A program made the position numbers and the translations under genes. From the NCBI GenBank assembly GCA_024276395.1, contig JAJRXH010000202.1, positions 1 through 23,913 of the forward strand: a stretch of 23,913 bases of DNA, in the 5' to 3' direction. Source of the stretch: an archaeon. Lineage in GTDB: Archaea > Asgardarchaeota > Heimdallarchaeia > Hodarchaeales > S146-22. Of this stretch, positions 9,551 to 23,613 are shown piece after piece. How positions within the stretch are numbered: position 1 is the stretch's first letter; each line of letters begins with the position of its first letter. The notes under the pieces were generated by a model. That model was not told the DNA's origin. It searched no databases and saw only the letters and a list, made by a program, of their open reading frames with translations.

Positions 9551-9619
9551 AAGGGATGTGGCTTTGCATCCGAAGTATGATCATGACGTGAAAAACAAAT
9601 TGAAAGAAGGTGTAAAAGA

Positions 9620-10633
9620 ATGAAAGAAGACGATCATTCCGTCGAAAATTTTGCACGATATGTCCAGGGGTTTTCTACCGAGATTTTAGGAGAAGTATCC
9701 AAAATCATTGTAGGAAAAAATGACATTCTTGAATTACTATTGGTCGCACTACTGGCTAACGGACACGTGCTTCTCGAAGGAGTACCTGGCGTAGCAAAAA
9801 CATTCATGGCACGGACGTTTGCTGGAGTCATGGGATTAGATTTCAAGCGAGTTCAGTTTACCCCAGATCTTCTTCCTAGCGACATCGTCGGTTCCATGAT
9901 TTATAATCAGAAAGAAGGAAAGTTTCAATTCAATCCCGGACCCATTTTTACAAACATCCTACTTGCTGATGAAATCAACAGAGCCCCTCCAAAGACGCAA
10001 TCTGCCCTCTTAGAAGCCATGGCTGAAAGAAGTGTTTCCGTAGAAGGTATCACGCACAAGCTTGACCGCCCGTTCACTGTATTTGCCACACAAAACCCTG
10101 TTGAACAGGAAGGAACTTACATCCTCCCAGAAGCACAATTAGATCGGTTCTTATTCAAGTTAAATGTCACGTACCCAGAAAAGACCGAAGATATTGAAAT
10201 TCTCAATCGCAAGCTAGGATTAAAGGACATTGATGAAATTAAAGTCGATGTCAAAGCTAATAAGGAACAAATCCGCGAAATACAAGATAACATCATCAAC
10301 ATTTATGTGGATCAAAGCATTCTTGAATACATTGCAGAACTTGTCAACAAGGCACGAAAGCATCCATACGTACAATTCGGTGCCTCACCACGCGCTTCCA
10401 TTGCGTTGATGATAGCAAGCCGTCCCCTCGCAGCAATGAAGGGAAGAGCTTACGTGGAACCCGATGACATCAAGGCTCTCTACAAGCCGATTCTCAATCA
10501 TCGTCTCGCCTTAACTCCAGAAGCTGAACTGGCCGGTTATACCTCAGAACAAATTCTAGATGAAATCATCAAAACTACGGAAGTACCCTATTTCGATCCA
10601 AATGAATTACCGGCATTACAACAAGCAGCCTGA
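9620..10633 (+). CDS. moxR: MoxR-family AAA+ ATPase (AAA_3 type)
   Basis: Walker A is GVPGVAKT (nt 9779-9802) and Walker B is ILLADEINRAPPKTQSALLEAM. Sensor-1 is VFATQNP, the ASPRAS arginine region is present, and the 337-aa length is typical. An AAGGTG Shine-Dalgarno sits about 7 nt upstream of the ATG. Confidence 0.93.
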   Translation: MKEDDHSVENFARYVQGFSTEILGEVSKIIVGKNDILELLLVALLANGHVLLEGVPGVAKTFMARTFAGVMGLDFKRVQFTPDLLPSDIVGSMIYNQKEGKFQFNPGPIFTNILLADEINRAPPKTQSALLEAMAERSVSVEGITHKLDRPFTVFATQNPVEQEGTYILPEAQLDRFLFKLNVTYPEKTEDIEILNRKLGLKDIDEIKVDVKANKEQIREIQDNIINIYVDQSILEYIAELVNKARKHPYVQFGASPRASIALMIASRPLAAMKGRAYVEPDDIKALYKPILNHRLALTPEAELAGYTSEQILDEIIKTTEVPYFDPNELPALQQAA

Positions 10634-10677
10634 ACAAAAACCAATGAGAATACCTGAAAGAGTGATTTCTAACCGAA

Positions 10678-12150
10678 ATGACAACCGGGGAAACATACAT
10701 GTCCTCAATTGACGATTTATTCGAAGAAATAGAAGAAGTCATCTCAATTCCGACAAGGAAAGCAAAAAGAAAAAAAATAATAGAATATAATCCAGAAGAT
10801 TTCATTTCACACCTAAGTCTCACGAGACGAGGAATGCTTATCACCATGGTCATCATCATTGACTTCGGACTCTACCTTTCCACCTCCCTCCCTTTTTTCG
10901 GTATCATCCTCATCATTTTTTCCGTCTTGTTTGCTATTGACTATTACTTATTCGTCAAAAATCCACTAGAAAATCTTCTCATCAAGCGACACATCGATCG
11001 AGCTTTGATGTTCGAAGGAGATTACAGCCTCGTGGAAGTTGAGGTCACCAACACGCATCCTACCAAGCCTATTGGTCTTCTAGAGGTAGAAGAGTATTAT
11101 CAGCCAGAAATCAAAGTCTTAACCACGAAGGAAAAACTAACCAAAAGCATGGCATTAGGACCAAAAGAATCTAATTACTTGAGGTATCTCTTTAAAATTG
11201 AACAAATGGGAAAGTACATCATCGGACCAATCAAGATGACTATAAAGGACTTTCTAGGTCTTTTTTCAGTCAACGTGATCGCACCTATTTTCGATGATGT
11301 CATCATCTTTCCTAGAATCGAAGACGCACAACGAATGTTCCAAGTTGCACAACGAAGAAAGTTAGGAAGATTTTTCGACATATTTCGACAAAAAGAAATC
11401 GGTTCTGGGTTAGACTTCTTTGGATTACGTGAATACGAACGAACTGATGATCATCGTGCTATTGACTGGAAAGCCTCTGCTAAAAGAAACATGGATCCTT
11501 TGATGGTACGGATTTATGAAACAGTCAATCCTTTAAACATTCTCATTGCATTAGACGCTGGAAAAAGCATGCTAGTGAGACTTGATAATGGAAAAACTAA
11601 ATATGAGGCAGTTCTCCCCATAGTAGCTTTTCTCATCCTGCTAGGACTATCCACGCGTGACAACGTGGGACTAGCCATCTTCGATTCAGAGGTAACTGCA
11701 TTCTTGAAACCAGCAAACCAACGAAAGGTCTTCTTTGACGCATTAAGACTGTTTGCAATGAGCAACAAAGGTAACAAGACTAGTTATCGACAATTAGCAA
11801 ATTACATCGTTGCTGGGGTAAGAGAACGAACTCTGGTCATCATCGTGACAGACTTGGAAGGAGATGTGGAAGAATTACATGAATGCATCCGAATTTTGAG
11901 GCTAAAAAAGTTTCCCGTTCTATTATTGTATCTAAAAAATGAAGAACTCGAATTTGATGTGCCCTTATCATCATTTGAGGACAAAATTTTCCTAGAAACC
12001 TATCTCGCTCATCGTGCTGCTGATATCATCCGAGAAGTAAGGAAAAAAGGAGTATCCACGATGACACTGAGACGTGAAGATTTCGAGAAACTGACCTTCC
12101 CGGTTACGCTTGAAAGATGGATTTCGTTGGTATCTCAAGCAAGGAGGTAA
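10678..12150 (+). CDS. DUF58 family protein (two N-terminal TM helices plus vWA-like domain), the usual MoxR partner
   Basis: The diagnostic DUF58 motif DFFGLREYERTDDHRAIDWKASAKRNMDPLMVRIYE is present. It is followed by the vWA-like strand LNILIALDAGKSM, a degenerate MIDAS (DxGxS). The N-terminal hydrophobic hairpin is MLITMVIIIDFGLYL / FFGIILIIFSVLFAIDYYLF. An alternative start is the ATG at 10699. Confidence 0.88.
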   Translation: MTTGETYMSSIDDLFEEIEEVISIPTRKAKRKKIIEYNPEDFISHLSLTRRGMLITMVIIIDFGLYLSTSLPFFGIILIIFSVLFAIDYYLFVKNPLENLLIKRHIDRALMFEGDYSLVEVEVTNTHPTKPIGLLEVEEYYQPEIKVLTTKEKLTKSMALGPKESNYLRYLFKIEQMGKYIIGPIKMTIKDFLGLFSVNVIAPIFDDVIIFPRIEDAQRMFQVAQRRKLGRFFDIFRQKEIGSGLDFFGLREYERTDDHRAIDWKASAKRNMDPLMVRIYETVNPLNILIALDAGKSMLVRLDNGKTKYEAVLPIVAFLILLGLSTRDNVGLAIFDSEVTAFLKPANQRKVFFDALRLFAMSNKGNKTSYRQLANYIVAGVRERTLVIIVTDLEGDVEELHECIRILRLKKFPVLLLYLKNEELEFDVPLSSFEDKIFLETYLAHRAADIIREVRKKGVSTMTLRREDFEKLTFPVTLERWISLVSQARR

Positions 12151-12153
12151 GAA

Positions 12154-13950
12154 ATGTTGATGACTATTAAGAAAACAGCAGGATATCGTCCAGCTAGCCG
12201 CAAATTATCTGAGCTACCCTTGTATTTTGAAAGATTACTACCTTTCACGGGAATTTTGAGAGTTGCTTTCATTGATCTGATGATCCTAAGCATGCTCGGC
12301 ATCTTCATTTTCTTCGATTATGCTTCTTTAATAGTTCGAATCACTCGTGGATTAATTCGTCGTGATCTCATTCTTAGGTATTTTTCGTTGAAGGATCAGG
12401 AAATCTTATTAATTCTACTTCTAGTAATTCTATACAATATTAGTAACATTTTTTGGATATTGAAGCCTAAAAAGATTCCGTTTGGTGAAACTTACATTCT
12501 TTTTTCGTTTATTTTCATCATTCTATTCAATGATGGCATCTTGGTACTTCTCAATGCGGACCAATTCCTCCATTACACCCTAGAACACGCACCAATAGAT
12601 TGGATACTATTAAGTTTTCTCATAGGTCTTACTTTTTTCACGATCTGGTTCGAACGTTACGTTAGGAAAAACAGACCGAAGAATATTTTTGATCTTGATC
12701 CGAATAGCATCGTCGAAACACTCAATTTCTTGATTTTTCTTCTCTTTACCTTGTTTCCCTTATTCATATTGCTCTTTCATCCTTTTTACAATCCAAAAGG
12801 TACCATTGTTTTGATAGATATGACCATGAACCTTTTGATTTCTCTTGATCCTTTAGATATCATGGGCACTCTAGATCAATGGTTCTACATTCTTCTAGAT
12901 GGATGGAAAGTTCTCCTCCTACTGGGTACTTACATCATTACCTTTTATCTAATGTTTCGTGCTACTAAGCAGCACGTGCTATCCAAGTTGGGTATGACCA
13001 TTCAAAAAAAGAAAAAAGTTCTTTCAACACGCCAATTCATTCGCGATCAGAAATACAAGCTAGTGGGGCTTGCACTCGTGACGGGATCTCACACGATAAA
13101 AGATCCTTATAGTAGTATTTTATGGATTTCACTTCCTCTCATTTCATTGTTCCTCATTTACAAGGATGAACTAAATCGTTTTCAACTATTTGTACTCACG
13201 ACCATCTTAGCTAGTATCTTTGTAAGTCGATGGATTCTTACCACCAACCTAGATACTGGTTACTATAATTTCTCAATTTTTAGCGTTTCCCTGTTTATTT
13301 CAATAATTGGGCTATTCATCACGTTAGTCTTCATCAGAAGTGGATATTTTGTTAGTATTGGCCTATTTGCAATTGCCATCCTCATTACCTATACCTTTTG
13401 GGACACCTATGAATATCTTTTCATTGCAGCCTTGCTTATCATTTTAGGAATTTTTTGGCTCCAACAACTTCAAAACATCGTCATTCCCTCACAAAAACTT
13501 TGTAACTCAGGAAAAGAGGCAAGAAGTCTTCTAGAGAATGAAGAAATCTTTTGGAGTGGAATACAAGAACGATTTTCATTGTCAGATGACTTGATGAATA
13601 GAATTCAATCCTATGTTTACTCTACACTCCAAAATGATCAAGAAAAAGTTCTCGAAATCATTTATGAGCCAGAAAAACCCTATAATGCAGTCATTTTCAC
13701 GGAACAAACCTTTTATAAGGCATTCCAGCTTGCAATTTCCATTTTAGCACCTCTTTTCGTATTGCCTTTAATCTTAATTTACATTCCCATTCCCTTCTTG
13801 GGACTTTATCATTCATCATCAGCCGGAAATTTCGCCGTTATAGTAATTTTATCGCTATACTTACTATCATTTGTTTTGATTTGGCTTCCTCCCATCCCCA
13901 TTCCCAAGTTTAAGGAAATGGAACTAGAATACAGGAGGTTTAAGCAATAG
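12154..13950 (+). CDS. Polytopic integral membrane protein (598 aa, 10 or more predicted TM helices, one soluble insert near residues 450-530), unknown family
   Basis: A strong AGGAGGT Shine-Dalgarno lies inside the end of the DUF58 gene, 6 nt before the ATG, with a 3-nt intergenic gap. The protein has long runs of hydrophobic segments. It occupies the slot where bacterial MoxR/DUF58 operons often carry a transglutaminase-like membrane protein, but I see no GxC...H...D transglutaminase core and the protein has only one Cys. Confidence 0.8.
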   Translation: MLMTIKKTAGYRPASRKLSELPLYFERLLPFTGILRVAFIDLMILSMLGIFIFFDYASLIVRITRGLIRRDLILRYFSLKDQEILLILLLVILYNISNIFWILKPKKIPFGETYILFSFIFIILFNDGILVLLNADQFLHYTLEHAPIDWILLSFLIGLTFFTIWFERYVRKNRPKNIFDLDPNSIVETLNFLIFLLFTLFPLFILLFHPFYNPKGTIVLIDMTMNLLISLDPLDIMGTLDQWFYILLDGWKVLLLLGTYIITFYLMFRATKQHVLSKLGMTIQKKKKVLSTRQFIRDQKYKLVGLALVTGSHTIKDPYSSILWISLPLISLFLIYKDELNRFQLFVLTTILASIFVSRWILTTNLDTGYYNFSIFSVSLFISIIGLFITLVFIRSGYFVSIGLFAIAILITYTFWDTYEYLFIAALLIILGIFWLQQLQNIVIPSQKLCNSGKEARSLLENEEIFWSGIQERFSLSDDLMNRIQSYVYSTLQNDQEKVLEIIYEPEKPYNAVIFTEQTFYKAFQLAISILAPLFVLPLILIYIPIPFLGLYHSSSAGNFAVIVILSLYLLSFVLIWLPPIPIPKFKEMELEYRRFKQ

Positions 13951-14102: not shown

Positions 14103-16691
14103 ATGGTCAAAGAACGGACAGATAATCAACAAAAAATCATCAAAACGGAAAATGATGAGTTTTCCATCCAAATTACAGTAGGTAAAACGTTTAGGGATCC
14201 TAATACAGGCTTAAATATCGTACTCTGTCCCAAGTGTTTTAACAAGATGTCGTTGTTCCTATGGCAAGGAACAAAAAGATGCTTGAGTTGTGGTCAAGGA
14301 ATTGGAAAAATTGAAGAACTAGAAATTAACTACACGCAACCACAAGTAGGTACCATAATTGAAAATGAATTGCTACGTTCCCAATGGGTAGAGTGCCCGG
14401 TCTGTGGATATAATAACACGCTAACTGCCATTGAAACAAATAAGATATGTTCTTCGTGCTCTGTCATCATTGGAAGCCTTCTCAACCCATCTACTGGTGA
14501 ACTCATCACGCTTGACATCGAAGAGATACTCATTGAGTACGAAAATAAATTTCAGGATGAGGAGAAAACCAGTAATTTACCGTTGCTCCAAATCAGTAAT
14601 GACGAAAAAATACTCCAAGATAGTTTGGCAGAAGGACTATTAGGGTTCTGGGAGGAAAGATGGCAAGTTAAATGCCTGTATTGTGGGTACATGAATGATG
14701 CGTCTTTGGTTAACAATTTCACTAATTTCAAGTGTGAACATTGCTTGCAACCAATTAAATCCCTCAAGTTCGACGAGAAGAGCCCAATCATGAACATTGA
14801 ATTAACTCCCATTGAATGTCCTCAATGCTCATTGGTGTATGAAAATAAAGAGAAATTACTAGAACTCATCGAACAAGAACTCACTTGCCAATGTGAATTC
14901 TCATTATTTGAGTATCTGCGTGATCCCGTCAAGGAAAAGGAATTTTATTCGAGAATGGTAGAATTACAAGTTAAATCCATGGAAGAAATTGAGTCAGATA
15001 GCTCAGAGAGAAAAGATGAAGAAAAATCAAACAAGCGCTTGTGTCCTTCGTGTTTCTCTCTCTATGATCTTGATGTCTTCGAATGCCCCACCTGTGATCT
15101 TTATTTAGATCCTGAAATGGCCAAGGCAGAAGAGCTAGATCCTTACGCCAAAGATTGGGCTTATCCATATACCGTTGATGAATTAGAAAAACTCATTGAA
15201 ATCCCGCCGTATGTGGCACGGAAGATTTATTGCGCAACTTGTGACGCTTACCATGAAAAATACAAGCTTCTCGCGGATAACGTGTTTTCATGTCCCCTTG
15301 ATCTTACTGATCTCACAAAACACAAGAGTTATTGTCAAAATTGCTCAATACAGTATCCCACTAATTACAATTTCTGCATGGAATGCGGGAAACAACTTGA
15401 AATCTTAGAAGTCGAAGTGTACATACCGCCACGGCTAAAAGAAACCACAGCTCCACCCACACCAGAACACGAGCCCAGTCCAATGACGATAAGAATTTTT
15501 TGTCTTGATTGCCAAGAAGAACACGAATATGACCTTGTACCACGATATTGCAAGAAATGTGGAGGGAAAATCGAGAAGAGTATGCATTTTTGTCCCCAAT
15601 GTCAAGTTTATTATCCGGTAACCTACAAGTTCTGTCGAATATGTGGCAAAGAACTAACAGAAAAAGTTCTTCCACAAGCAGATCGAATTACCATTACCGA
15701 AAAAGCCGCGATTTATTGTCATCACTGTCGAAAAAGTCAAACCTATACTTTTGTCCCAGCCGCTTGTTACAATTGTTTCATGCCGTTAGAAGTGAATGAA
15801 CTAAGATATTGTCAAAAATGCAAGATTAATTACCCACGTTTCTATAAATACTGCCAAGAATGTGGAAAACCACTCTCCTTCTCTAGAATTTCCCTACCAA
15901 AGCCATCAAAGTTAAAGAGCGTCCCCATTTATTGTAGTCCATGCCAAGAAACATATTTCTATCAGCATCCAGCAAAATATTGCAAGAAATGTGGACAATA
16001 CAACCGATTACAACCGTTGAGACGATGCCCACAATGTTTAGCCATTCAATCTCCTAATTTTAAATATTGCAAGAATTGTAAAGCGACGACAATAACTTGG
16101 ATTCCAAACCCCTTTGAAGTCAACCCGTCTCTATTAGAGGCATTCACTAAAATTGAACTGGAGAGTACACAACAAACTTCAATGGAAGAACTACAAACAA
16201 TAGAGCATCAAATTCCTCCAACCACCTCTCAACAAATAGAAGTTCCACGACTTACTCCTAGTAGTAGCTCATCTGCTTCAGCAATTCCAATCACTCAAGT
16301 TGACAAAAACCAATCTAAAAAACAAAAGATCGAAGCACTCCCAAGGGATGTTAAGAGTGATGACCAAAAAATCACTGAAAAAGGATTGATTGAAGAACAA
16401 GTAAAGCAATTTTTGGTAGATTATTTGAGAAAAAACAAATGGAAGTTAATCGATCCCGCCAAAATAGGCTTCAAAGTTGATATCATTGCTTCCAAAAGGA
16501 AAAAATTAATCGGCATTCAAGTCTCTAGCAATCCTACTACGGCGATGATGGATGAGCTGCTTTTCACGGGTTTTCCGGGAAAGTGGGCAATCTTTGTATT
16601 AAATAATGATGATGGGCAAGATCTTGGAAGAAATACCTTCCACGTGAAAACGTTGGACGCCTTGAGAAAGATCATCGATTCACTCGTGTAA
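14103..16691 (+). CDS. Multi-zinc-ribbon protein (about 13 CxxC...CxxC units) with Ser/Pro-rich linker and a C-terminal ~100-aa restriction-endonuclease-fold-like domain
   Basis: Cys pairs run from C42 (nt 14226) to C659 (nt 16079). Eleven are complete Cys4 units and two are degenerate (CPQC...CQC and CATC...C). Units such as FCPQCQVYYPVTYKFCRICGKEL, YCQNCSIQYPTNYNFCMECGKQL and YCQKCKINYPRFYKYCQECGKPL match the zinc_ribbon_2/DZR pattern. The start is uncertain: there is no Shine-Dalgarno before ATG 14103, and the frame stays open upstream to nt 13944 (see findings). Confidence 0.85.
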   Translation: MVKERTDNQQKIIKTENDEFSIQITVGKTFRDPNTGLNIVLCPKCFNKMSLFLWQGTKRCLSCGQGIGKIEELEINYTQPQVGTIIENELLRSQWVECPVCGYNNTLTAIETNKICSSCSVIIGSLLNPSTGELITLDIEEILIEYENKFQDEEKTSNLPLLQISNDEKILQDSLAEGLLGFWEERWQVKCLYCGYMNDASLVNNFTNFKCEHCLQPIKSLKFDEKSPIMNIELTPIECPQCSLVYENKEKLLELIEQELTCQCEFSLFEYLRDPVKEKEFYSRMVELQVKSMEEIESDSSERKDEEKSNKRLCPSCFSLYDLDVFECPTCDLYLDPEMAKAEELDPYAKDWAYPYTVDELEKLIEIPPYVARKIYCATCDAYHEKYKLLADNVFSCPLDLTDLTKHKSYCQNCSIQYPTNYNFCMECGKQLEILEVEVYIPPRLKETTAPPTPEHEPSPMTIRIFCLDCQEEHEYDLVPRYCKKCGGKIEKSMHFCPQCQVYYPVTYKFCRICGKELTEKVLPQADRITITEKAAIYCHHCRKSQTYTFVPAACYNCFMPLEVNELRYCQKCKINYPRFYKYCQECGKPLSFSRISLPKPSKLKSVPIYCSPCQETYFYQHPAKYCKKCGQYNRLQPLRRCPQCLAIQSPNFKYCKNCKATTITWIPNPFEVNPSLLEAFTKIELESTQQTSMEELQTIEHQIPPTTSQQIEVPRLTPSSSSSASAIPITQVDKNQSKKQKIEALPRDVKSDDQKITEKGLIEEQVKQFLVDYLRKNKWKLIDPAKIGFKVDIIASKRKKLIGIQVSSNPTTAMMDELLFTGFPGKWAIFVLNNDDGQDLGRNTFHVKTLDALRKIIDSLV
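15231..16079 (+). repeat. Protein-level tandem array: four units, each pairing a type-A zinc ribbon (I(Y/F)CxxC...YCKKCG) with a type-B zinc ribbon ((Y/F)CxxCxxxYPxx(Y/F)K(Y/F)CxxCGKxL)
   Basis: First Cys positions of the A units are residues 377, 467, 539 and 611. First Cys positions of the B units are 411, 497, 570 and 642. Units 2-4 are spaced 72-73 residues apart (about 216 nt). The DNA copies are diverged, so this is not a recent duplication. Confidence 0.75.
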
Positions 16692-16704
16692 CTGGTGAGA
16701 AGAT

Positions 16705-18381
16705 ATGGACGAACGTAAAAAGATGAAAATATGGATATTCATCATCTTGATATGCTCTAGTTCAATCATGCTAACCCATTTTTCTATAATGATGTCAACA
16801 CAGAATCGATACTTGCTTAATTTCAAGCAAAATGAAATGATAACAAGTCACTCTCATAAAAAAGATTATAGTCATTTAGTATCTCAAAAAACTCCCTTTC
16901 ATCAAAAAACGCCATTCATTAAGCAAGTTCAGGAGATCGGTACACTCTCTGTACATCCTTATCATCTCGAGGCCATTAATGATAGCCTACAAATTGAATC
17001 GAATTTTATCTTTAATGCGACATTAGATCGAACAATCTATGGAAGTGGTAGTATCATTCACATTAAAGGGTATCTAGGTTACGCTAACAATACGCCCATT
17101 GCCGGTAATGAAGTCAACATCACCTTTCTTGATGCAGTTAACAACAAGTTGACTAGCACCACGGAAAACACGCGTTTGGACGGAAGTTGGAACGTGGATT
17201 ATCAACTTTCTTCCTCAACTCCCACTGGAGGCTATCACGTAGAAGTTTGGACGAAAGTAAATGAATCGATCTTGTCCCTATCATTAACCTATACTGTTGT
17301 CGCACGCAGTTCAATTACTTTCATCTCGAATTCAACTCTTCCTAATCCACCCATTCACTATTTCCCCTTTTCAATCATCGTCAAGTTGAGTTCTCAAGAA
17401 ATAAGCGATGCTAAAATTATATTCACGACTGACGAAGGTATTACATGGAAACAAGCAACTCTAGTAAGTTCCACAGAAGACCCAGCAACATTCACCGCAT
17501 TGCTAGGACCTTTTAACAAGAGCATAAATAAATTACAATGGTTTGCTGTCATCATTGATAGTGATGGAAAAATAAAGGAATCTCAAATACAGGTAATCTC
17601 TTTTCGTCCGTTTAACGCTTCCATCACGATAGATATCACCTCAACTCCCTACACGCACGTGACTCACGTTTGGAATGTAACAATCAATACTAATTTACCA
17701 GAAGATTACTACTACATAAAAGTGAAAGCAGCCTTTCTTGGTAATGAGCAAGAGTTTTACTTGCCTACTTGGAAAGTAAGAGCTGGTTTTTATCAGTTCT
17801 CTTTCAACACGACAATGACTGGAACATGGACTTTTACTGCGGAATTACGATCGACATTCAATAATTCAATTTTAAAACAACAATCAGAAACCACCTATCT
17901 GTCCTTAATGGACATTCATCCACCTCGAATCCAAAATGTCGAGTATGATAAAAGTAGCATCTTCAATGATTTGCCAGTTGTTGTTACCATCATCATCGAA
18001 GAAAATCATACTTACCATGATTTACTAGTTTTCGTGAAATACCGTCAAGGTACCATTGAAGAAGGTCCTACTACCCAATGGTCAGTCAAAACCCTATTAT
18101 CGCCTGGACAGAATAGCCAAGATACCGTGAAAATTCAATGGGAAATCCCAGTTACATTAAAAGAGGGAGATTTATTTCAATTTCAAGTGATAGCAATTGA
18201 TGGATTCAATAACACTGCATCTTCAAGACTTTATACCATTTCTTATCCCTTAACAAGGGAAGAATCCACTAATTTTCCCTTCTACATGTTCTTAATCACA
18301 TTGATGATGTTTTTTTTCAATAAGTTCAAAAGAACTCGAATGCTGAAAAATGAGAAGATTCTTAATCAAGGAGATGTATGA
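16705..18381 (+). CDS. Type-I membrane surface protein with Ig-like/beta-sandwich domains, N-terminal signal/anchor and C-terminal TM helix
   Basis: A GGTGAG Shine-Dalgarno precedes the ATG. The N-terminal hydrophobic segment is IWIFIILICSSSIMLTHF and the C-terminal TM is FPFYMFLITLMMFFF, followed by the basic tail NKFKRTRMLK. The ectodomain has more than 10 N-x-S/T sequons and a GNEVNITF...RLDGSWNVDYQL motif of the same type as in the giant protein. Confidence 0.85.
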   Translation: MDERKKMKIWIFIILICSSSIMLTHFSIMMSTQNRYLLNFKQNEMITSHSHKKDYSHLVSQKTPFHQKTPFIKQVQEIGTLSVHPYHLEAINDSLQIESNFIFNATLDRTIYGSGSIIHIKGYLGYANNTPIAGNEVNITFLDAVNNKLTSTTENTRLDGSWNVDYQLSSSTPTGGYHVEVWTKVNESILSLSLTYTVVARSSITFISNSTLPNPPIHYFPFSIIVKLSSQEISDAKIIFTTDEGITWKQATLVSSTEDPATFTALLGPFNKSINKLQWFAVIIDSDGKIKESQIQVISFRPFNASITIDITSTPYTHVTHVWNVTINTNLPEDYYYIKVKAAFLGNEQEFYLPTWKVRAGFYQFSFNTTMTGTWTFTAELRSTFNNSILKQQSETTYLSLMDIHPPRIQNVEYDKSSIFNDLPVVVTIIIEENHTYHDLLVFVKYRQGTIEEGPTTQWSVKTLLSPGQNSQDTVKIQWEIPVTLKEGDLFQFQVIAIDGFNNTASSRLYTISYPLTREESTNFPFYMFLITLMMFFFNKFKRTRMLKNEKILNQGDV

Positions 18382-18821
18382 CCATGGGAAACGTGATAAA
18401 TTTAAATTTGCATTCCTACTTTCAAGATGTCTCTAATAAATGGCTGGAACTACTTAACACGTTGAGCTTGCAAGTACCTAACCACCCACAACTAAATCAC
18501 CTGATGACTCTTTATGAAGATCTCGAACAAATTAAGTTCGAGGTTCAGTATCTTCCATCACCCTCATCATCACTCCTAAAAAGACAAAAAAATATGTATG
18601 AAGTCCTCATGCTATTAAGTGCCGTGTTATGTCAAAAAATCCTTAGGATCATCGTGAACTTACATGACCAAGTAAGTCTTCATCAAAAATACCTAGAAGT
18701 GGAAGAAATTGAAGAAGTTACAAGACTCATAAGACAGGTAGAGCAAGTAAATCGAATGCTCCTAAGACTCCTCCAAGGTGAAGATCTCAACACAACCCTC
18801 ATCAAGAAAATGGAACAATAA
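18378..18821 (+). CDS. Small all-helical/coiled-coil cytoplasmic protein (147 aa), unknown family, possibly an ESCRT-associated adaptor
   Basis: The ATG overlaps the upstream stop (ATGA at 18378-18381) and is preceded by AGGAGAT. Heptad-like Leu/Glu/Gln-rich sequence is present (EVEEIEEVTRLIRQVEQVNRMLLRLLQ). The TAA at 18819-18821 is in the same frame as the next gene. No family was recognised by eye. Confidence 0.65.
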   Translation: MTMGNVINLNLHSYFQDVSNKWLELLNTLSLQVPNHPQLNHLMTLYEDLEQIKFEVQYLPSPSSSLLKRQKNMYEVLMLLSAVLCQKILRIIVNLHDQVSLHQKYLEVEEIEEVTRLIRQVEQVNRMLLRLLQGEDLNTTLIKKMEQ

Positions 18822-18833
18822 CATGCTAAAGCA

Positions 18834-19388
18834 TTGGAACAATTAAAGACAAAGCTGCTAGGAATTGAAGAAGATGTCGAGGAAATACGGATTCTCGAAC
18901 AGCAACAAAAAATACATAAGGGAAGATTTCTCGGAAAGAAGAAATTCATCAAGCAATTAGGCGACATCATTCTTCAGGAATCTGATGAACTCTCAAAGAA
19001 AAGTGGCGGTATTGTTGAATTACAGAGGTTGTATCGCCACTTAAAAAGAAAATATGACATTGATATGGATGTTACAGATGTACTCGATGCTTGCGAATTT
19101 CTGTTAGCAAAAAACGTCATCGATGCCATCATCGAATTACCAGGTTCAGTTATGAAAATCATCTCTTTTTCTCCGATGGCACTTGATGCTGAAATACGAC
19201 AATTACTATTTTTAGCAAGTTCCCACGGCGGCGTGCTAACTAGAGAAGAAATCACGCTAAGCACGGACTGGGATCAAGCTCGGATAGATCGTCTCATGGA
19301 TCTGATGGAACGAAGAGGTTTTGCCATACGAGAAAAATCCTTCGAGGGAGAAAAGTGGTACTTCCCAGCATTCTATGAAAATAAGTAA
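18834..19388 (+). CDS. vps22: ESCRT-II Vps22/Vps36-like protein (EAP30 domain, tandem winged helices)
   Basis: KKSGGIVELQRLYRHLKRK...DVTDVLDACEFLLAKNVIDAIIELPGSVMKIISFSP forms the first winged helix. SHGGVLTREEITLSTDWDQARIDRLMDLMERRGFAIREKSFEGEKWYFPAFY forms the second. Both follow the pattern I recall for eukaryotic Vps22/SNF8: GG(I/L)xxLxxL, V(S/T)xxD(L/V)xxA, VTxxE(I)...W...RA...L, and aromatic-aromatic-x-P-A-(L/F) at the C-terminus. The only usable start is TTG 18834. There is no in-frame ATG until codon ~77 and no Shine-Dalgarno. Confidence 0.78.
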   Translation: MEQLKTKLLGIEEDVEEIRILEQQQKIHKGRFLGKKKFIKQLGDIILQESDELSKKSGGIVELQRLYRHLKRKYDIDMDVTDVLDACEFLLAKNVIDAIIELPGSVMKIISFSPMALDAEIRQLLFLASSHGGVLTREEITLSTDWDQARIDRLMDLMERRGFAIREKSFEGEKWYFPAFYENK

Positions 19389-19433: not shown

Positions 19434-20084
19434 ATGTCAAAGCAATTAGAACTAAAGGATGTTATCAAGCCTATCAGTGGAGCAGCAAGCAAAAAATCTC
19501 TGTTTCGGAAAAAAAAGGTCATCTCATCACAACGAATCCGAGTAGGTGAAGAATCAATCATCACGCGCATCACATTTCAAAATGACAAAAATGCCCCAGA
19601 TTTCTTTCTCGTGACGCCTCATGAACACGCTGTCATTATTATGGATGGTGTACCATTCGAAATAAAACAAGAAGGAGCATTCGAAATCATCAAAAAGAAG
19701 AAATGGCTTCAAATCGAGATTATATGGCTAAAAAAGAATGAAATAAACATAAAATGGGGCTCTGGAGCCTTCATTACAAGCGACAGAAAAGAATTCGGAT
19801 GTTATGGCATTGCAAGAGTTCAAATTCTCCAACCTAGGCATTTCATGCTGAGAATTTTAGGTGGTGGAACTTTCTCATTTACTGACGAAGATCTTCGAAA
19901 CTTCATCCGAGCGGATCTCCTCAACACCCTTCGTAACAGTTTTTCAAGGTTTTCCATCGCCCAAATTCGGGCACAGAATAAATTACTTCAAATTCAAGTT
20001 AAGGCCAACCTCTCCCCAACCCTACGACGTTGGGGACTTGAATTGCTGGATTTTCAAATAATAGGGTTTAAATTCCAAGAATAA
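19434..20084 (+). CDS. SPFH-superfamily protein of the YdjI/Band_7_1 (COG4260-like) type, lacking the usual C-terminal zinc ribbon
   Basis: An AAGGTG Shine-Dalgarno lies about 8 nt upstream. The following match my recollection of the Band_7_1 profile: VTPHEHAVIIMDGVPFEIKQEGAFEI, IEIIWLKKNEINIKWGSGAFITSD, GCYGIARVQILQPRHFMLRILGGGTFSFTDEDLRNFIRADLLNTL and WGLELLDFQIIGFKF. That profile reads (E)xxAV..dG...pG.y.l; vyFv..re..n.kWGT; lrafG.y...v.dP..F; GiEl..f.i..i. Confidence 0.62.
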   Translation: MSKQLELKDVIKPISGAASKKSLFRKKKVISSQRIRVGEESIITRITFQNDKNAPDFFLVTPHEHAVIIMDGVPFEIKQEGAFEIIKKKKWLQIEIIWLKKNEINIKWGSGAFITSDRKEFGCYGIARVQILQPRHFMLRILGGGTFSFTDEDLRNFIRADLLNTLRNSFSRFSIAQIRAQNKLLQIQVKANLSPTLRRWGLELLDFQIIGFKFQE

Positions 20085-20141
20085 TAAAACAGATCCTCAT
20101 GATGAATGATAAATCAATAGATTTACTAGGTGACTTGAGCA

Positions 20142-21197
20142 ATGGCCGAACATAATCAAGACATTGATGAAAAAATCATGTTAAACGATGATCTACTAGA
20201 AATTAAAAGACTCCTTAAAAAAATACCAAGGTCACTTTTCTTGTTGTTAGAGAACGTGATCATCTTCATTAGCGTGTTGTTCTTACCTTTATTTCAAATG
20301 ATATATAACATCCAAGGTACAATTATTCTTGTTTCACTGTCAGGTAAAATTCTCGGGGGATTTCCCTATATCATTGCAATCATCTCTACCTACTTGATCT
20401 TCTTGTGTAGTATATATGAAATCAAGCGAAGAAAACTCAAGAATGTCAGACAAGACCGTAAACGACGTCACTTGATTGTCAACTCCTTGGATTCTCTTGC
20501 AAGCTATTCGCTGGTAATGACAATTAGCCACGTTTTACTTCTCATCTTCCTCATTCTCTTCTATCATTCCTACCTAATTAATTATGATAAAACAATAGCT
20601 AACGACCCATTGAGATTCATTCCACCACAAGTGTTATATCATAATTTACCAGATCCAACGCCATCCAGTTATTCTTGGTTCTTGAAGATATATATTGGTA
20701 GCTACATCTTAATTTCAGCTGCCTTGTTATCTTTTTTCCACGAAATTATAGTTTTTTTCCGGATTCGGAAAATAAAGAAGAAAATCTTGCCAACCATTGA
20801 TTCACTGCTGGATTTGGAGAAAAAAGCAACACCAACCGCTGAACACGAAGAAAAATCTGACATGGAATCAATTACTTATGAGCTAGAGGACGACATGGAA
20901 AAAATATCAATAGATTCTATCATTTCTACAGAAAAACAAGAACCATTACTGACATCATCAGATTCCGAGATGAGCACCACGATAGAGGCATCTTCAACAA
21001 TGGAACAATCTCAAGAAGCTATGACAGCAGCTGCATCACCATTCAGAGCAATAAAATCTTCTATTGAACCTCCAATCCGTTCAACCGGATATCTTAGGAA
21101 TTTTAAACCTCCAAAATTGAGACCGTGCAGTAATTGTAACACTAAAATTCCAATGTCTGCGAAATTTTGCTACGAATGCGGTATCCCTGCATCTTAA
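20142..21197 (+). CDS. Multi-pass membrane protein with acidic/Ser-rich linker and C-terminal zinc ribbon
   Basis: An AGGTGA Shine-Dalgarno lies 8 nt upstream. There are about 5-6 hydrophobic helices (e.g. LFLLLENVIIFISVLFLPLF, YIIAIISTYLIFLCSIY, VMTISHVLLLIFLILFY, YILISAALLSFFHEIIVFF). The C-terminal CSNCNTKIPMSAKFCYECGIP is the same zinc_ribbon_2 pattern as in the 862-aa protein. Confidence 0.82.
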   Translation: MAEHNQDIDEKIMLNDDLLEIKRLLKKIPRSLFLLLENVIIFISVLFLPLFQMIYNIQGTIILVSLSGKILGGFPYIIAIISTYLIFLCSIYEIKRRKLKNVRQDRKRRHLIVNSLDSLASYSLVMTISHVLLLIFLILFYHSYLINYDKTIANDPLRFIPPQVLYHNLPDPTPSSYSWFLKIYIGSYILISAALLSFFHEIIVFFRIRKIKKKILPTIDSLLDLEKKATPTAEHEEKSDMESITYELEDDMEKISIDSIISTEKQEPLLTSSDSEMSTTIEASSTMEQSQEAMTAAASPFRAIKSSIEPPIRSTGYLRNFKPPKLRPCSNCNTKIPMSAKFCYECGIPAS

Positions 21198-21260: not shown

Positions 21261-22409
21261 TTATTTTTCCATCAATTTTACATGATTTCCTTCGATTAAT
21301 AGAGCAATAAGCTCATTGGAAAGGCCGTGCAAGAGATGTTCTAATACCACGAATTGATCAACTTGTAACGTGACCGTCGCATCGCAGTAAAAACCTTGCA
21401 AGAGGGGAAGATTAGCCAAGGGGCTTACATCAATGACCTTTAGGCGATTTTCGCCTAACGTCAAGTATTCTAAAGACAGGCAATGCTCAATTGGGCTCAT
21501 GTCTATCTGTTCCAACTCATTTCGTGCCAATTTCAGAACTCGTAAGCGATGACACTCGGCCAGGGGAGAAAGATCTATCCGAGAAAGTCGATTGAAAGAA
21601 AGATCCAATTCTTTTAATCGCCTACAAGAAGCCAATGGAAGCAGATCAACTTGTTGAAGCTCATTCTCTTGTAATCCTAGATACGTGAGATTTGAGCAAT
21701 GACGAAGCGGTGAAAGATCCACGAATTCCAAATGATTCTGATACAAGCCAAGACTGCTTAAATGAATACAACGAGACAAGGGTGTCAAGTCCATTTCAGA
21801 GACGGCAATATCATGTAATCCCAGGACCGCCAAGCTTGGAAAGAGCTTGAAAGAAGAAAGATCCAGTTCACCCAATGGATTTTCCGAAAGATGCAAGAAG
21901 GCCATGTTCTCCTTGTGGCCAAGAACTTCAAGATTTACCTCAGAGAGACCATTTTTACGCAAGCTCAAGTATTCTAATAGATGACATGAACGTAATGGCG
22001 AAAGATCAATATGTTCCAATTGATTTTCGGAAAGATAAAGTTGTCGAACCTCTTTTAGATTCGATAAAGAACTCAAATCAACTTCGACTAGCTGGTTTTT
22101 CCACAATTTCAAGCTCTTGAGACGGGGACAATGACGGAGCGATGCAAGGTCAACATCTTCAAGCATGTTTTCGGAAAGATCAAGCTCAATGAGGTTCGAA
22201 CAATGGCGGAGGGGAGATAAATCGATCGATCGCAGTCCAACCTTCCATAACTTGAGATGTTGCACCCGTGGACAATGCTGCAGGAATGAAAGATCTATTT
22301 CACTTAAATTCGTTCCATAAAATGAAAGATAAGTCACGTCACGAGCAACTTTTCTTACCTGTCGCGTGCCATCCCAATTTTTCCCCATTACCAATACTTT
22401 CTCCATCAT
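21261..22409 (-). CDS. Leucine-rich-repeat protein (about 13 tandem 24-residue LRRs)
   Basis: The repeating unit is DLSPLxxCxxLxxLxLxxNxLxx(V/I), e.g. DLSPLRHCSNLIELDLSENMLEDV and DLSPLRHCSNLTYLGLQENELQQV. An in-frame TAG lies immediately upstream of the ATGATG start. The gene is convergent with the + strand block. Confidence 0.92.
   Translation of the reverse strand: MMEKVLVMGKNWDGTRQVRKVARDVTYLSFYGTNLSEIDLSFLQHCPRVQHLKLWKVGLRSIDLSPLRHCSNLIELDLSENMLEDVDLASLRHCPRLKSLKLWKNQLVEVDLSSLSNLKEVRQLYLSENQLEHIDLSPLRSCHLLEYLSLRKNGLSEVNLEVLGHKENMAFLHLSENPLGELDLSSFKLFPSLAVLGLHDIAVSEMDLTPLSRCIHLSSLGLYQNHLEFVDLSPLRHCSNLTYLGLQENELQQVDLLPLASCRRLKELDLSFNRLSRIDLSPLAECHRLRVLKLARNELEQIDMSPIEHCLSLEYLTLGENRLKVIDVSPLANLPLLQGFYCDATVTLQVDQFVVLEHLLHGLSNELIALLIEGNHVKLMEK
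21375..22334 (-). repeat. 72-nt periodic coding repeat (LRR array)
   Basis: About 13 consecutive 24-codon units are read directly from the translation. Cys is conserved at repeat position 8 in 10 of the 13 full units. Confidence 0.8.
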
Positions 22410-22465: not shown

Positions 22466-23233
22466 CTACTCATCCTTGAGGGCAAGAACCAAGAGAGAAT
22501 CACTTGTTTCGGGATCAAAAGCCGAACCGTCATGGTCTGAATAAGATTCTACTTGCTGGAATCCCACGTCACGTAGAATTTCCTCCAATTCAGTTCGTGT
22601 TTTCATTTTCAAGAGATTAGAGTCCCATTCAACCGTCCAATTGTCAGATCCCTTGCCATTTTCAGTAACATCCCGAGACAGAAAAACAAAATCTGCCAAG
22701 ATCCCGGTTGGACGAGGTTCAAAACGCTTGAGAAGGAGAACCTCCTTACCGTCAACCTTTAGGCTTCTTGAAGCCATGTACCCATTTCGAGGATTCTCTG
22801 GATTTAATTGTTGTGCAAAAAAGAAGCCACCGGGATTAATCGTCTCATGTACCTTCTTGAAAAACGTCATGGCTTCAGTATCCGTCAGAATGATTCCCAA
22901 GGCATTTCCGAGGCAGATCATTGCATCTACTCGAACGTCACTGGATACTTGAAAGATATCCCCATGAATGAGTTGAATCTGGTCTTGAAGTCCAGCTTTC
23001 TCCACGTTGTCTCTTGCCACTGCCAGCATATCCTCGTCAACATCGACTCCAATCACTGAAATGCCAAGATCCTTTGCCAGGGCAATGGCATGCACTCCCG
23101 GGCCACACCCAAGATCTAACAGAGTTTCCACGTCGTGCTGCCGACAAAGTCGTTCAAGAAATGGTAACTCGTGATTTAACCTTTTTTGCCAGTTCACTTG
23201 AAGGTAATATAGTTTAGCCTTGCTGAGGGACAT
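22466..23233 (-). CDS. Class I SAM-dependent methyltransferase
   Basis: Motif I is LLDLGCGPGVHAIALAK, the post-I acidic residue is in VIGVDVDEDM, and LIHGDIF and MICLGNALG follow. I place the start at ATG 23233 (MSLSKAKLYY...) because GAGGTGG lies 5 nt upstream. The track start at 23272 is a TTG with no Shine-Dalgarno. Confidence 0.88.
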   Translation of the reverse strand: MSLSKAKLYYLQVNWQKRLNHELPFLERLCRQHDVETLLDLGCGPGVHAIALAKDLGISVIGVDVDEDMLAVARDNVEKAGLQDQIQLIHGDIFQVSSDVRVDAMICLGNALGIILTDTEAMTFFKKVHETINPGGFFFAQQLNPENPRNGYMASRSLKVDGKEVLLLKRFEPRPTGILADFVFLSRDVTENGKGSDNWTVEWDSNLLKMKTRTELEEILRDVGFQQVESYSDHDGSAFDPETSDSLLVLALKDE

Positions 23234-23613
23234 TTTTCCACCTCTTAAGATTCTCTCAAAATGAACGATCAAAATCTAAAGTTTGCTTGACGTGTAGAAC
23301 CAAGGATTGAATCTATCTTGTTAACACTGATGCTGAATCATTCATCTTATTGTACCATTATTTCTTGGACTTTATATGACTTGTGACGAAGACGATCCAC
23401 GCGCAAGCTTGCCTGCTTGTTAGATGGGAAATTGAATGGCCATGGCAATCGACCTTCCTTCTATAACGAGTAAAAGGCAATAATGGAAAGGTAAAAATAA
23501 ACTCGTGATCTAGTAAATTTTCACGGCTTTTTCTCACGACTGAAAGTCATGCAAAAGAAGTAAAGTCTCACGTGCAATGGAATGATTGAGAGGACGTTCA
23601 ATCACTCAAGGTG
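23234..23613. promoter_or_regulatory. Divergent intergenic region between the methyltransferase (-) and the partial membrane gene (+), with candidate operator-like motifs
   Basis: At 380 nt this is the longest non-coding stretch in the window. TCTCACG occurs twice (23532-23538 and 23566-23572), TCACG once more at 23521-23525, and inverted CGTGA at 23504-23508. There is a CACGTG palindrome at 23569-23574 and a 7-bp inverted repeat TGATTGA(N8)TCAATCA at 23583-23604. A/T-rich TATA-like stretches include CTTTATATGA ~23369-23378 and AAAAATAAA ~23493-23501. I cannot place a transcription start. Confidence 0.3.

Follow-up and report, generated by a model that had tools for sequence, protein, structure and literature searches.

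The window, a 23,913-nucleotide stretch of contig JAJRXH010000202.1 (assembly GCA_024276395.1) from an archaeon of the Hodarchaeales (Asgardarchaeota; Heimdallarchaeia), carries on its forward strand a run of genes that includes a Vps22/EAP30-like gene, an SPFH gene and a gene for a membrane protein:

14103..18381, + strand: an 862-aa protein with multiple double zinc ribbons (DZR, 71 bits) and a 558-aa surface protein with an MG2 domain (43.5 bits)
18378..19388, + strand: Vps22/EAP30-like gene, encoding an N-terminal helical region and tandem winged helices (Pfam EAP30, family profile)
18819..18821, + strand: in-frame TAA inside the EAP30-like gene (orthologue comparison)
19434..20084, + strand: soluble, core-only SPFH protein of 216 aa (Pfam, AF2, Foldseek, orthologue alignment)
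20142..21197, + strand: lineage-specific polytopic membrane protein of 351 aa (hydropathy, AF2, orthologues)
21126..21182, + strand: zinc ribbon CSNCNTKIPMSAKFCYECG, C-terminal in the 351-aa protein (Pfam, conserved in orthologous locus L001)

The open reading frame positions given in an earlier note on this DNA were verified in the window sequence. Two orthologous loci, L001 and L003, share the upstream gene order of the window; at another locus, L010, the order is DZR protein, 786-aa protein, EAP-like gene, SPFH gene and methyltransferase, without the transmembrane (TM) zinc-ribbon gene. The window proteins have no match in NCBIfam or PADLOC, and an alignment of the window clade used as query recovered no related loci from genome or metagenome contigs.

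The 216-aa protein comprises an SPFH1+SPFH2 core with a basic N-terminal segment (KKSLFRKKK). Its AF2 model (pLDDT 86) retrieves stomatin, prohibitin, HflK/C and flotillin in Foldseek at E values of 1e-11 to 1e-7 over 162-167 columns, the best match quoted being human stomatin (E 2.7e-11). Hydropathy gives no TM segment, there being no hydrophobic 19-mer over threshold, and the coiled coil, SHOCT-like helix and zinc ribbon are all absent. The protein lacks a CxxC motif and ends two residues past the last SPFH2 strand, just as the earlier note had claimed in saying that it stops directly after the core. Both orthologues (67-74% identity among the window, L001 and L003) stop at the same place, so that the short form is genuine rather than an artefact of truncation. 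An AAGGTG motif lies 7-12 nt upstream of the SPFH start codon, and the 45-nt gap from the EAP30-like gene is without a T-run. The profile searches proposed in the earlier note produced matches to both Band_7 (PF01145; 39.3 bits, GA 23.6) and Band_7_1 (PF13421; 30.1 bits, above the cut-off of GA 24). The description of the protein as YdjI-type but without a zinc ribbon therefore holds in part: Band_7_1 is matched above its cut-off, the protein is soluble like YdjI and the ribbon is lacking, but assignment to the Band_7_1/COG4260 (YdjI-type) subtype is ambiguous because PF01145 outscores PF13421 in the window protein, as it does in nine of ten paired relatives.

SPFH tails among the relatives are of three kinds: a coiled coil with a SHOCT-like helix, a coiled coil with a zinc ribbon, or none. 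Most relatives of the window protein have the coiled coil; in the nearest it is followed by a SHOCT-like helix (‘GKISEExY’) and there is no zinc ribbon, while a more distant sub-clade of paired SPFH proteins (including P0029) combines it with a zinc ribbon of the ‘AKFCxxCG’ type. The claim that this SPFH family typically ends in a zinc ribbon thus fits that sub-clade and not the nearest relatives. Among 102 remote homologues, Band_7_1 is matched by 98, a hydrophobic segment is absent in 97 and a zinc-ribbon end is present in 19. A second core-only protein (204 aa, at L016) has no TM zinc-ribbon neighbour. When a 24-sequence SPFH alignment was used as query, coiled-coil words dominated the search and only five proteins were returned.

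The downstream membrane protein has four long TM helices by hydropathy and AF2, at approximately residues 30-61, 69-97, 118-143 and 180-207, rather than the five or six previously suggested; residues 230-320 form a disordered, acidic and serine-rich linker. The AF2 model, made from a single sequence (pLDDT 56), was used only for counting helices and locating the zinc ribbon, where pLDDT is 74-82. The protein does end in a zinc ribbon, as the note had proposed: CSNCNTKIPMSAKFCYECG scores 23.9 bits against Zn_Ribbon_1 (just below GA 25) and 22 bits against DZR, and the motif is kept in the L001 orthologue. It corresponds to the generic Zn_Ribbon_1/DZR consensus, many copies of which occur in the 862-aa protein of the same window. 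Since the positive-inside rule places both termini inside, the tail after the last helix (residues 208-351), and with it the ribbon, is predicted to be cytoplasmic. Judged by the identity of its orthologues (34-36%, against 67-74% for SPFH), this is a fast-evolving protein. Its gene is confined to the window, L001 and L003, which are three close genomes; protein homology search found no other homologues, and none is present in any other locus with an SPFH/EAP-like pair. In the 57 nt between the SPFH and membrane-protein genes there is a GGTGA resembling an RBS and no T-run; the sequence just after the stop codon of the latter is T-rich. A Pfam scan at E <=1 returns only zinc-ribbon models at the C-terminus, and the comparison with YdjG and YdjH that the note had suggested gave a match to neither, there being no TPM domain, N-terminal double zinc ribbon or NTF2-like feature. 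Membrane proteins with zinc-ribbon tails account for 12 of 360 genes in the pair loci; being heterogeneous in architecture and not mutually homologous, they are unproven as a conserved third partner.

The EAP30-like reading frame spans 337 codons and is split by the TAA at 18819-18821 into ORFs of 147 and 184 aa. Its orthologues are unsplit, single ORFs of 306 and 337 aa, in which a lysine codon (AAG or AAA) occupies the position of the stop (MERKYAK in L003 and L001, MEQ*HAK in the window). The stop may have arisen recently by nonsense mutation, or it may be an error of assembly; in view of it, the pair may be undergoing decay in the window. The C-terminal ORF matches Pfam EAP30 (PF04157) at 37.0 bits against GA 26.8, and a profile built from 24 EAP-like partners retrieves human VPS22/SNF8 (4e-15), yeast Vps22 (5e-5) and Vps36 (7e-4). 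Because that profile matches only Vps22 and Vps36, a winged-helix protein of the UFL1/DDRGK1 type was ruled out. Family profiles thus recognise the ESCRT-II-like neighbour of the earlier note as EAP30-like, albeit with a frame that is interrupted in the window. The Asgard proteins share with eukaryotic Vps22/SNF8/EAP30 the tandem winged-helix core, a Pfam EAP30 match above cut-off and the similarity to human VPS22; they differ in having a longer N-terminal region, which in forms of ~460 aa includes an extra winged helix, and in having an SPFH protein as obligate neighbour.

We collected 40 non-redundant loci through SPFH similarity, and every locus with a named organism belongs to an Asgard MAG; L038 lies in the complete Asgard genome CP070831.1. 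A Vps22/EAP30-like gene accompanies the SPFH gene in 37 of them, directly upstream in 36; the exception, L005, has it one gene downstream. The pair was present in 21 of 23 assessable loci from an SPFH-only genome scan, in 7/7 loci recovered when metagenomes were scanned for the sub-clade with zinc-ribbon tails and in all nine non-redundant loci obtained by direct look-up. Over 7 kb to each side, no further ORF is matched by the EAP-like profile. The pair occurs in Promethearchaeota, Hermodarchaeota and Hodarchaeota MAGs, in which SPFH identity is only 20-35%. Between SPFH distances and EAP-like distances the correlation is r = 0.94, a value reached in 0/5000 Mantel permutations and due in part simply to shared phylogeny. 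Divergence runs in parallel in the two genes, which have also been duplicated together; for both genes the nearest pair outside the window clade is L014, which comes from the same MAG as the orthologous locus L003. The conserved feature is the upstream Vps22-like/SPFH pairing and not the arrangement of SPFH with a TM zinc-ribbon protein, and the linkage of an ESCRT-II-type gene to SPFH is far stronger than one window could show.

Other ESCRT components are not enriched near the pair. The first 34 pair loci contain no ORF with a Vps4-like GxxGxGK[ST] Walker A motif, and no Snf7, PspA or Vps family is among the 25 most frequent families listed for their 144 neighbours; Snf7 and PspA are also absent from the window and from L001 (20 kb). 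No Vps25, Vps36, ESCRT-I or ESCRT-III context was seen near the pair, and among the neighbour families listed there is no sign of the canonical Asgard vps22 setting, beside vps23, vps28 or vps25. The co-occurrence that the earlier note had wished to see examined is thus real for the ESCRT-II-like gene (37/40), with no enrichment of Vps4, Snf7 or PspA.

In 16 of the 40 loci (~40%) the pair abuts a mobile UFM1-like cassette, which may be upstream, downstream or divergent. Its genes encode a 360-aa zinc-ribbon protein, a UBA5-like E1, a JAB protease, an 88-aa ubiquitin-like protein (Ubl) ending in VG and a UFC1-like E2. The E1 matches UBA5 at 5e-49, against 3e-24 for MoeB, and the E2 matches only UFC1, weakly (6e-5; Pfam UFC1 25.5 bits, GA 25). 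A conserved Cys in a ‘MICHEH’ motif of the cassette is the candidate site for a thioester. In the PDB, the Ubl profile has no sequence match to UFM1 and that of the 360-aa protein no meaningful sequence match. Neighbours in L007 and L014 show weak matches to E3_UFM1_ligase and DDRGK, and PCI is clear in L014. Neither the window nor its orthologues nor the zinc-ribbon sub-clade has the cassette within the available flanks. The likeness to eukaryotic UFMylation (UBA5, UFC1, UFM1), clear for the E1 and weak for the E2, lies in the E1, the E2 and the VG terminus of the Ubl, and the differences in a JAB protease in place of UFSP, a Ubl without a sequence match to UFM1 and the lack of a cassette in the window. 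Ufm1 homologues have recently been reported in Asgard archaea.

Several known systems invite comparison. SPFH genes are typically paired with a dedicated membrane partner. The window protein has the SPFH1+SPFH2 fold of cage-forming SPFH proteins (HflK/C-FtsH, QmcA-YbbJ/NfeD, stomatin, prohibitin, flotillin); unlike them, it has no N-terminal TM segment or hairpin, coiled-coil wall or cap, and no NfeD or FtsH partner. Because wall, cap and N-terminal membrane anchor are missing, it probably cannot build a closed cage alone. The earlier note's account of ydjGHI in Bacillus subtilis is accurate (Scholz 2021; Ravi 2024): YdjI reaches the membrane only with its partners YdjG and YdjH (Scholz 2021), of which YdjG combines a pair of N-terminal zinc ribbons with an NTF2-like domain and a TM segment, and YdjH a TPM domain with a membrane segment (Ravi 2024). 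The pspA-ydjGHI locus likewise sets a soluble SPFH protein without TM segment beside membrane proteins and zinc-ribbon proteins. It differs in that YdjI has its own zinc ribbon, YdjG and YdjH are not similar to the 4-TM zinc-ribbon protein, and the partner is PspA, of the ESCRT-III superfamily, whereas the window has a Vps22-like protein of the ESCRT-II family and no PspA or Snf7 nearby. The general idea of an ancient SPFH-ESCRT link, which the note had suggested, has been published before, together with the comparison to YdjI-PspA (Makarova 2024, mBio); our loci add an ESCRT-II-type link in 37/40 cases, while Vps4, Snf7 and PspA are not enriched. The Meth_adaptin loci of that study similarly link an archaeal SPFH, coiled-coil, zinc-ribbon protein to ESCRT components, but these are euryarchaeal and contain Vps4, ESCRT-III and adaptin-appendage proteins, whereas the Asgard pair has the Vps22-like protein only. 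The Asgard section of Makarova 2024 does not mention a Vps22-like + SPFH pair, and we found no published description of one.

The reading we prefer, to which we give a probability of about 0.55, is that a Vps22-like protein and a soluble SPFH protein form an Asgard-specific two-gene unit, and that the window holds a derived paralogue with a TM zinc-ribbon tether. From the domain families, the Vps22-like subunit would act as a winged-helix adaptor of the SPFH scaffold, and gene order suggests that in many lineages it may connect the scaffold with UFM1-like conjugation or with neighbours that have winged-helix tails. In the window, a derived pair would have lost the oligomerising tail of its SPFH protein and gained, directly downstream and probably co-transcribed, the fast-evolving 4-TM protein with its cytoplasmic zinc ribbon. 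The weakest step is the last, that this protein most likely serves as membrane tether for the soluble SPFH protein; as a tether it would then correspond to YdjG/YdjH or NfeD by analogy and not by homology. Consistent with tethering are the lack of a TM segment in the SPFH protein, the cytoplasmic ribbon, the 57-nt gap without a T-run and the T-rich stretch after the membrane gene, and there is precedent in the need of soluble YdjI for YdjG and YdjH. Against the preferred reading, the TM zinc-ribbon gene occurs in three close genomes, where conserved order at 67-74% identity proves little; the core-only SPFH protein at L016 has no such neighbour; zinc-ribbon membrane proteins are common (12/360); and the window has a premature stop in its EAP30-like gene and no UFM1-like cassette.

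Some of these observations would also suit an incidental, lineage-specific insertion of the TM zinc-ribbon gene, with the tail-less SPFH protein working with the Vps22-like protein alone or the pair degenerating. This possibility, which we hold tentatively and at odds well short of even, accounts for the restriction of the gene to the window, L001 and L003, for its 34-36% identity beside SPFH proteins at 67-74%, for the gene order of L010 and for the premature stop; yet the gene is on the same strand, starts 57 nt after the SPFH gene with a GGTGA resembling an RBS and no T-run in between, precedes a T-rich stretch and has been kept in all three genomes of the clade, its gain coinciding with loss of the SPFH tail. 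The earlier note had favoured an archaeal equivalent of ydjGHI, in which the zinc ribbon of a YdjI-type protein has moved to the neighbouring membrane protein and PspA/ESCRT-III-like repair is recruited through the ESCRT-II-like neighbour. The Band_7_1 match and solubility of the 216-aa protein, the 98/102 and 19/102 figures for remote homologues, the sub-clade in which SPFH, coiled coil and the same ‘AKFCxxCG’ ribbon are united and the conserved ESCRT-II-like neighbour all speak for it. We nevertheless consider it improbable, and the analogy is not supported as stated: the nearest relatives have SHOCT-like tails, the zinc-ribbon motif is generic and repeated in the 862-aa protein, and the membrane protein, restricted to three close genomes, has none of the TPM, N-terminal double zinc-ribbon or NTF2-like features and is unrelated to YdjG/YdjH; moreover, the survey of neighbours described above revealed no Vps4-like Walker A motif and no Snf7 or PspA family, and neither of the latter is near the window pair or in L001.

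Two further readings concern the cassette. The ER membrane is the site of eukaryotic UFMylation (UFL1-DDRGK1). Gene order would allow the pair to serve an Asgard pathway of UFM1-like conjugation as its membrane-receptor arm, a prokaryotic forerunner, with the window paralogue a rewired version anchored by the TM zinc-ribbon protein in place of the SPFH tail. We regard this as unlikely; if true, the forerunner would unite UFMylation with an SPFH microdomain scaffold and a winged-helix adaptor of the ESCRT-II type. Bacterial E1/E2/JAB/Ubl defence systems also exist, and pair and cassette might instead constitute a signalling or antiviral module rather than a device for trafficking or membrane remodelling. 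Fusions to TIR are found (SPFH-TIR in P0013; TIR with the 360-aa zinc-ribbon protein in L026, TIR_2 53.9 bits), the cassette changes its position and orientation between loci, and LRR and Roc/Arf GTPase neighbours recur. But PADLOC has no specific match to any pair protein and registers only generic E1 similarity, our scan found no relatives in viral contigs, and the similarity of the E1 and E2 is specifically to UBA5 and UFC1, so such a module seems very improbable.

SPFH scaffolds, ESCRT-II and UFMylation belong to the endomembrane biology of eukaryotes, and where they come from among prokaryotes is debated; in an Asgard archaeon, basket-like SPFH structures were recently observed on the membrane. 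The SPFH + TM zinc-ribbon arrangement is in itself of much narrower interest than the Vps22-like + SPFH pair. UFC1 has been stated to be exclusive to eukaryotes, and the UFC1-like E2 in the pair loci qualifies that claim. The pair suggests that ESCRT-II-type adaptors were used outside the ESCRT-III/Vps4 pathway before eukaryotes arose, and a Vps22 paralogue coupled to SPFH, often with UBA5-like and UFC1-like enzymes, gives testable hypotheses.

The window has a low GC content of about 39% (base composition of the whole contig), and ORF calling placed one long same-strand gene array across bases 27-21197, followed by two genes on the opposite strand.

Genes of the window in order (position, strand, description, basis)
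From base 27, start of array, +, 2680-aa surface protein, then a 494-aa protein (Pfam, annotations of orthologous contigs)
After the 494-aa protein, +, MoxR, DUF58 and a 598-aa polytopic membrane protein (Pfam, orthologous-contig annotations)
14103-16691, +, 862-aa protein with many double zinc ribbons (Pfam, orthologous-contig annotations)
Between the 862-aa and EAP30-like genes, +, 558-aa MG2-domain surface protein (Pfam, orthologous-contig annotations)
18378-19388, +, EAP30-like gene (Pfam)
19434-20084, +, SPFH gene, 216 aa (Pfam Band_7, Band_7_1)
20142-21197, +, membrane protein with zinc ribbon, 351 aa (Pfam, sequence)
21261-22409, -, LRR protein, 382 aa (Pfam)
22466-23272, -, class I SAM methyltransferase (Pfam)

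The EAP30-like, SPFH and membrane-protein genes are separated by gaps of 45 and 57 nt; both contain an RBS-like motif (AAGGTG, GGTGA) and lack a T-run. T-rich sequence follows the last gene of the array (20142-21197). This arrangement fits co-transcription of the three without proving it. At the other end (27-13950), the giant surface protein, rich in Asn-x-Ser/Thr sites, precedes the MoxR/DUF58/polytopic-membrane operon; all are co-directional with the pair, and their order is repeated in the orthologous locus L001. At least six double zinc ribbons are present in the 862-aa protein, whose C-terminal region (FKVDIIAS...IGIQVS) shows, by eye, a candidate PD-(D/E)xK nuclease motif.

An ESCRT-II-like gene had been noted beside the SPFH gene; an EAP30-like frame is indeed present, as a single frame of 337 codons broken by a TAA at 18819-18821 into ORFs of 147 and 184 aa. 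Both orthologues encode Lys (AAG or AAA) at this codon, and the stop reflects a recent nonsense mutation or else an error of assembly. The 216-aa SPFH protein scores above the cut-off of both Pfam models (Band_7 39.3 bits, Band_7_1 30.1 bits), and sequence hydropathy found no hydrophobic segment in it. Its AF2 model (pLDDT 86, alignment of 24 homologues) opens with about 40 N-terminal residues, runs on through SPFH1 and SPFH2 and closes with a strand at 202-214, and its Foldseek neighbours are stomatin, prohibitin, HflK/C and flotillin (E 2.7e-11 and weaker, about 165 columns). Since the two orthologues (74% and 67% identical) terminate at the same position, the core-only form is genuine. The description in the earlier note of an SPFH ORF ending after its core beside a ribbon-bearing membrane gene holds with small corrections, namely the helix count of the membrane protein and the stop inside the ESCRT-II-like frame.

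A word-indexed search with this protein recovered only the two orthologues and one fragment; when 1.84 billion representatives were searched exhaustively with a profile, just 100 proteins reached E <=1e-3. The best matches (E 1e-30 to 1e-10, 250-590 aa) share the N-terminal segment and SPFH core, continuing into a coiled coil and a terminal helix, 'L..GKISEE.Y...', that resembles the SHOCT-like elements proposed to anchor domains to the inner leaflet (Ravi et al.). Zinc-ribbon tails occur in 19 of 102 relatives, from E ~1e-9 onward only. The label 'YdjI-type' is defensible but not clean, because the generic Band_7 outscores Band_7_1 in nine of ten relatives, yet 98 of 102 match Band_7_1 at E <=0.001 and the window protein shares the soluble architecture of YdjI. 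Among further members of the family is an SPFH-TIR fusion of 430 aa (P0013).

The EAP30-like gene accompanies these SPFH genes far beyond the window. It adjoins SPFH in seven loci of remote relatives at 24-33% identity (L004, L014, L007, L010, L012, L013, L016), lies one gene away in L005, and is also upstream of P0029, a zinc-ribbon-tailed relative. Two scans were made with SPFH sequences only, so that loci were chosen without reference to the partner. The genome scan (one genome per GTDB species, SPFH-only alignment) returned 24 loci, all from MAGs, of which 21 carry a Promethearchaeota/Promethearchaeia, Hermodarchaeota or Hodarchaeota label and three the name 'uncultured archaeon'. The HMM made with ten EAP30-like partners already known matched one ORF per locus, directly upstream and on the same strand, in 21 of the 24; of the others, L019 begins at a contig edge, and L032 and L033 are without a partner. 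The partner is also present in all seven loci of a metagenome scan for the P0029 sub-clade. The proposed link from SPFH to ESCRT-II proves real and broad, the pair being present in 37 of 40 non-redundant loci. We call the partner family truly Vps22-like on the evidence of its profile, which matches human VPS22/SNF8 (4e-15), yeast Vps22 (5e-5) and Vps36 (7e-4) and nothing else.

The two genes also diverge together: the correlation between SPFH distances and those of the partner is r = 0.94, a value reached by none of 5000 Mantel permutations. L014 is the nearest outside pair to the window clade for both genes, and lies in the same MAG (GCA_027018025.1) as the orthologous locus L003, so the pair was duplicated as a unit. 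After duplication, the window copy shed its SPFH tail and acquired the membrane zinc-ribbon gene. A second MAG, isolate 33X4, likewise carries two diverged copies (L020 and L036). Downstream of the L014 pair come a zinc-ribbon-rich PCI/UFL1-like protein of 589 aa and then an Arf-like GTPase.

Clustering of pair neighbours and family HMMs revealed a five-gene UFM1-like cassette beside the pair, upstream, downstream or divergent, in 16 of the 40 loci (L005, L016, L018, L020, L021, L023-L026, L028, L031, L035-L037, L039, L040).

Members of the cassette
360-aa protein whose C-terminal end carries a zinc ribbon and '...IPKxLRY'
ThiF-type E1, specifically UBA5-like (5e-49, against 3e-24 for MoeB)
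JAB protease
88-aa Ubl ending 'IIDRGIVG'
E2 whose PDB matches are UFC1 only and which just reaches the Pfam UFC1 cut-off

Ubl and E2 form a single ORF of about 270 aa in four loci (L018, L031, L035, L037), and neighbours in L007 and L014 match E3_UFM1_ligase and DDRGK weakly, with a clear PCI in L014. Within the available flanks, no cassette was found in the window, its orthologues or the zinc-ribbon sub-clade. In L026, a gene at 3247-4857 joins TIR (TIR_2 53.9 bits) to the 360-aa zinc-ribbon protein; TIR fusions to pair or cassette components, seen in some lineages, hint at a signalling or defence aspect, and PADLOC gave no specific system match. Diverse neighbours, comprising TM proteins, LRR proteins, Roc/Arf GTPases and beta-propellers (families 6, 7, 8 and 10; L019, L020, L024, L028, L031, L036, L041), share a C-terminal module of a PCI-like winged helix and '...FIDxLDKxFxxWEK...KKK', which might act, for the pair or for the Ubl system, as a tag for docking or cargo.

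The expected co-occurrence with PspA or ESCRT-III did not emerge. Among the Pfam matches listed for 144 neighbours of the first 34 pairs, recurrent families are LRR, PCI, Ras/Roc/Arf, TPR and methyltransferase, with Snf7, Vps4 and PspA missing from that list; a Vps4-like Walker A motif was found in no ORF of these loci. Genes of ESCRT-III type are not recurrent neighbours. LRR is the most frequent family (8/144), which may be background, Asgard genomes being rich in LRR proteins; in the window, the LRR gene and the gene for the membrane protein converge. A class I SAM methyltransferase adjoins the pair in the window clade (also L001:11981-12742) and in two distant lineages (L010:7191-7919; L012:7096-7899, Hodarchaeales).

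As for the membrane protein, it has four long hydrophobic helices rather than five or six, then a disordered linker rich in acidic residues and Ser, and a ribbon of the form CxxC...CxxC at its C-terminus. From the Lys/Arg clusters at residues 1-30, 95-117 and 208-216, the positive-inside rule predicts that both termini, hence the ribbon, are cytoplasmic. The gene is limited to the window, L001 and L003 (context look-ups, neighbour clustering), its product is 34-36% identical across these genomes against 67-74% for SPFH, and no homologue was detected in the protein database or other pair loci. L010, with the order DZR protein, large protein, EAP-like, SPFH, methyltransferase, is without it. Other ribbon-bearing membrane proteins near some pairs, surveyed within the pair loci, are heterogeneous; a roughly 195-aa tail-anchored protein (two zinc ribbons, coiled coil, C-terminal Gly-rich TM) recurs beside some pairs and cassettes (L013:6834-7430, L018:990-1577, L035:7734-8048).

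The ydjGHI arrangement that the earlier note describes is documented (Scholz et al., Ravi et al.). Homology fails, in that neither the YdjG features (two zinc ribbons, NTF2-like domain, TM segment) nor the YdjH TPM domain was found in the membrane protein, leaving functional likeness at best. That a zinc ribbon moved from SPFH to its neighbour is unproven. The ribbon follows a generic 'AKFCxxCG' consensus that recurs at the ends of zinc-ribbon-tailed SPFH proteins and in many copies in the window 862-aa protein, so the likeness to SPFH tails carries no specific signal. Overall, the earlier interpretation is partly supported.

An ancient SPFH-ESCRT connection is not a new claim, YdjI-PspA having been cited in its favour by Makarova et al., whose Asgard section mentions neither SPFH nor the pair. 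Our full-text literature search found no description of the pair, which supplementary asCOG tables could contain. UFM1 and UFC1 have been considered exclusive to eukaryotes, with UFL1 and DDRGK1 arising in Asgard archaea (Picchianti et al.; for UFC1, PMC10183829); Ufm1 homologues from nine Asgard clades are reported in a structural survey of 2026, which is silent on UFC1, ESCRT-II and gene context. The Asgard-wide pair, often coupled to a UBA5-like/UFC1-like cassette, appears to be new.

What the data show is a conserved pair, made up of a Vps22-like and an SPFH protein, whose genes diverge together and which was duplicated whole, with the cassette recurring alongside. We consider it very probable (about 0.9) that the two form a functional unit. 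In the window lineage, the membrane zinc-ribbon protein might replace the lost SPFH tail as anchor, a proposed functional counterpart of YdjG/YdjH for YdjI, although we regard this tether role as doubtful, and an ESCRT-III-like remodelling role for the pair as less likely still. The SPFH protein would work at the cytoplasmic membrane face, with its basic N-terminal segment as the attachment, joined in most lineages by the coiled coil and a tail of SHOCT-like or zinc-ribbon type. Its winged-helix adaptor would be the Vps22-like protein, and in many lineages the pair may serve or receive a UFM1-like conjugation system.
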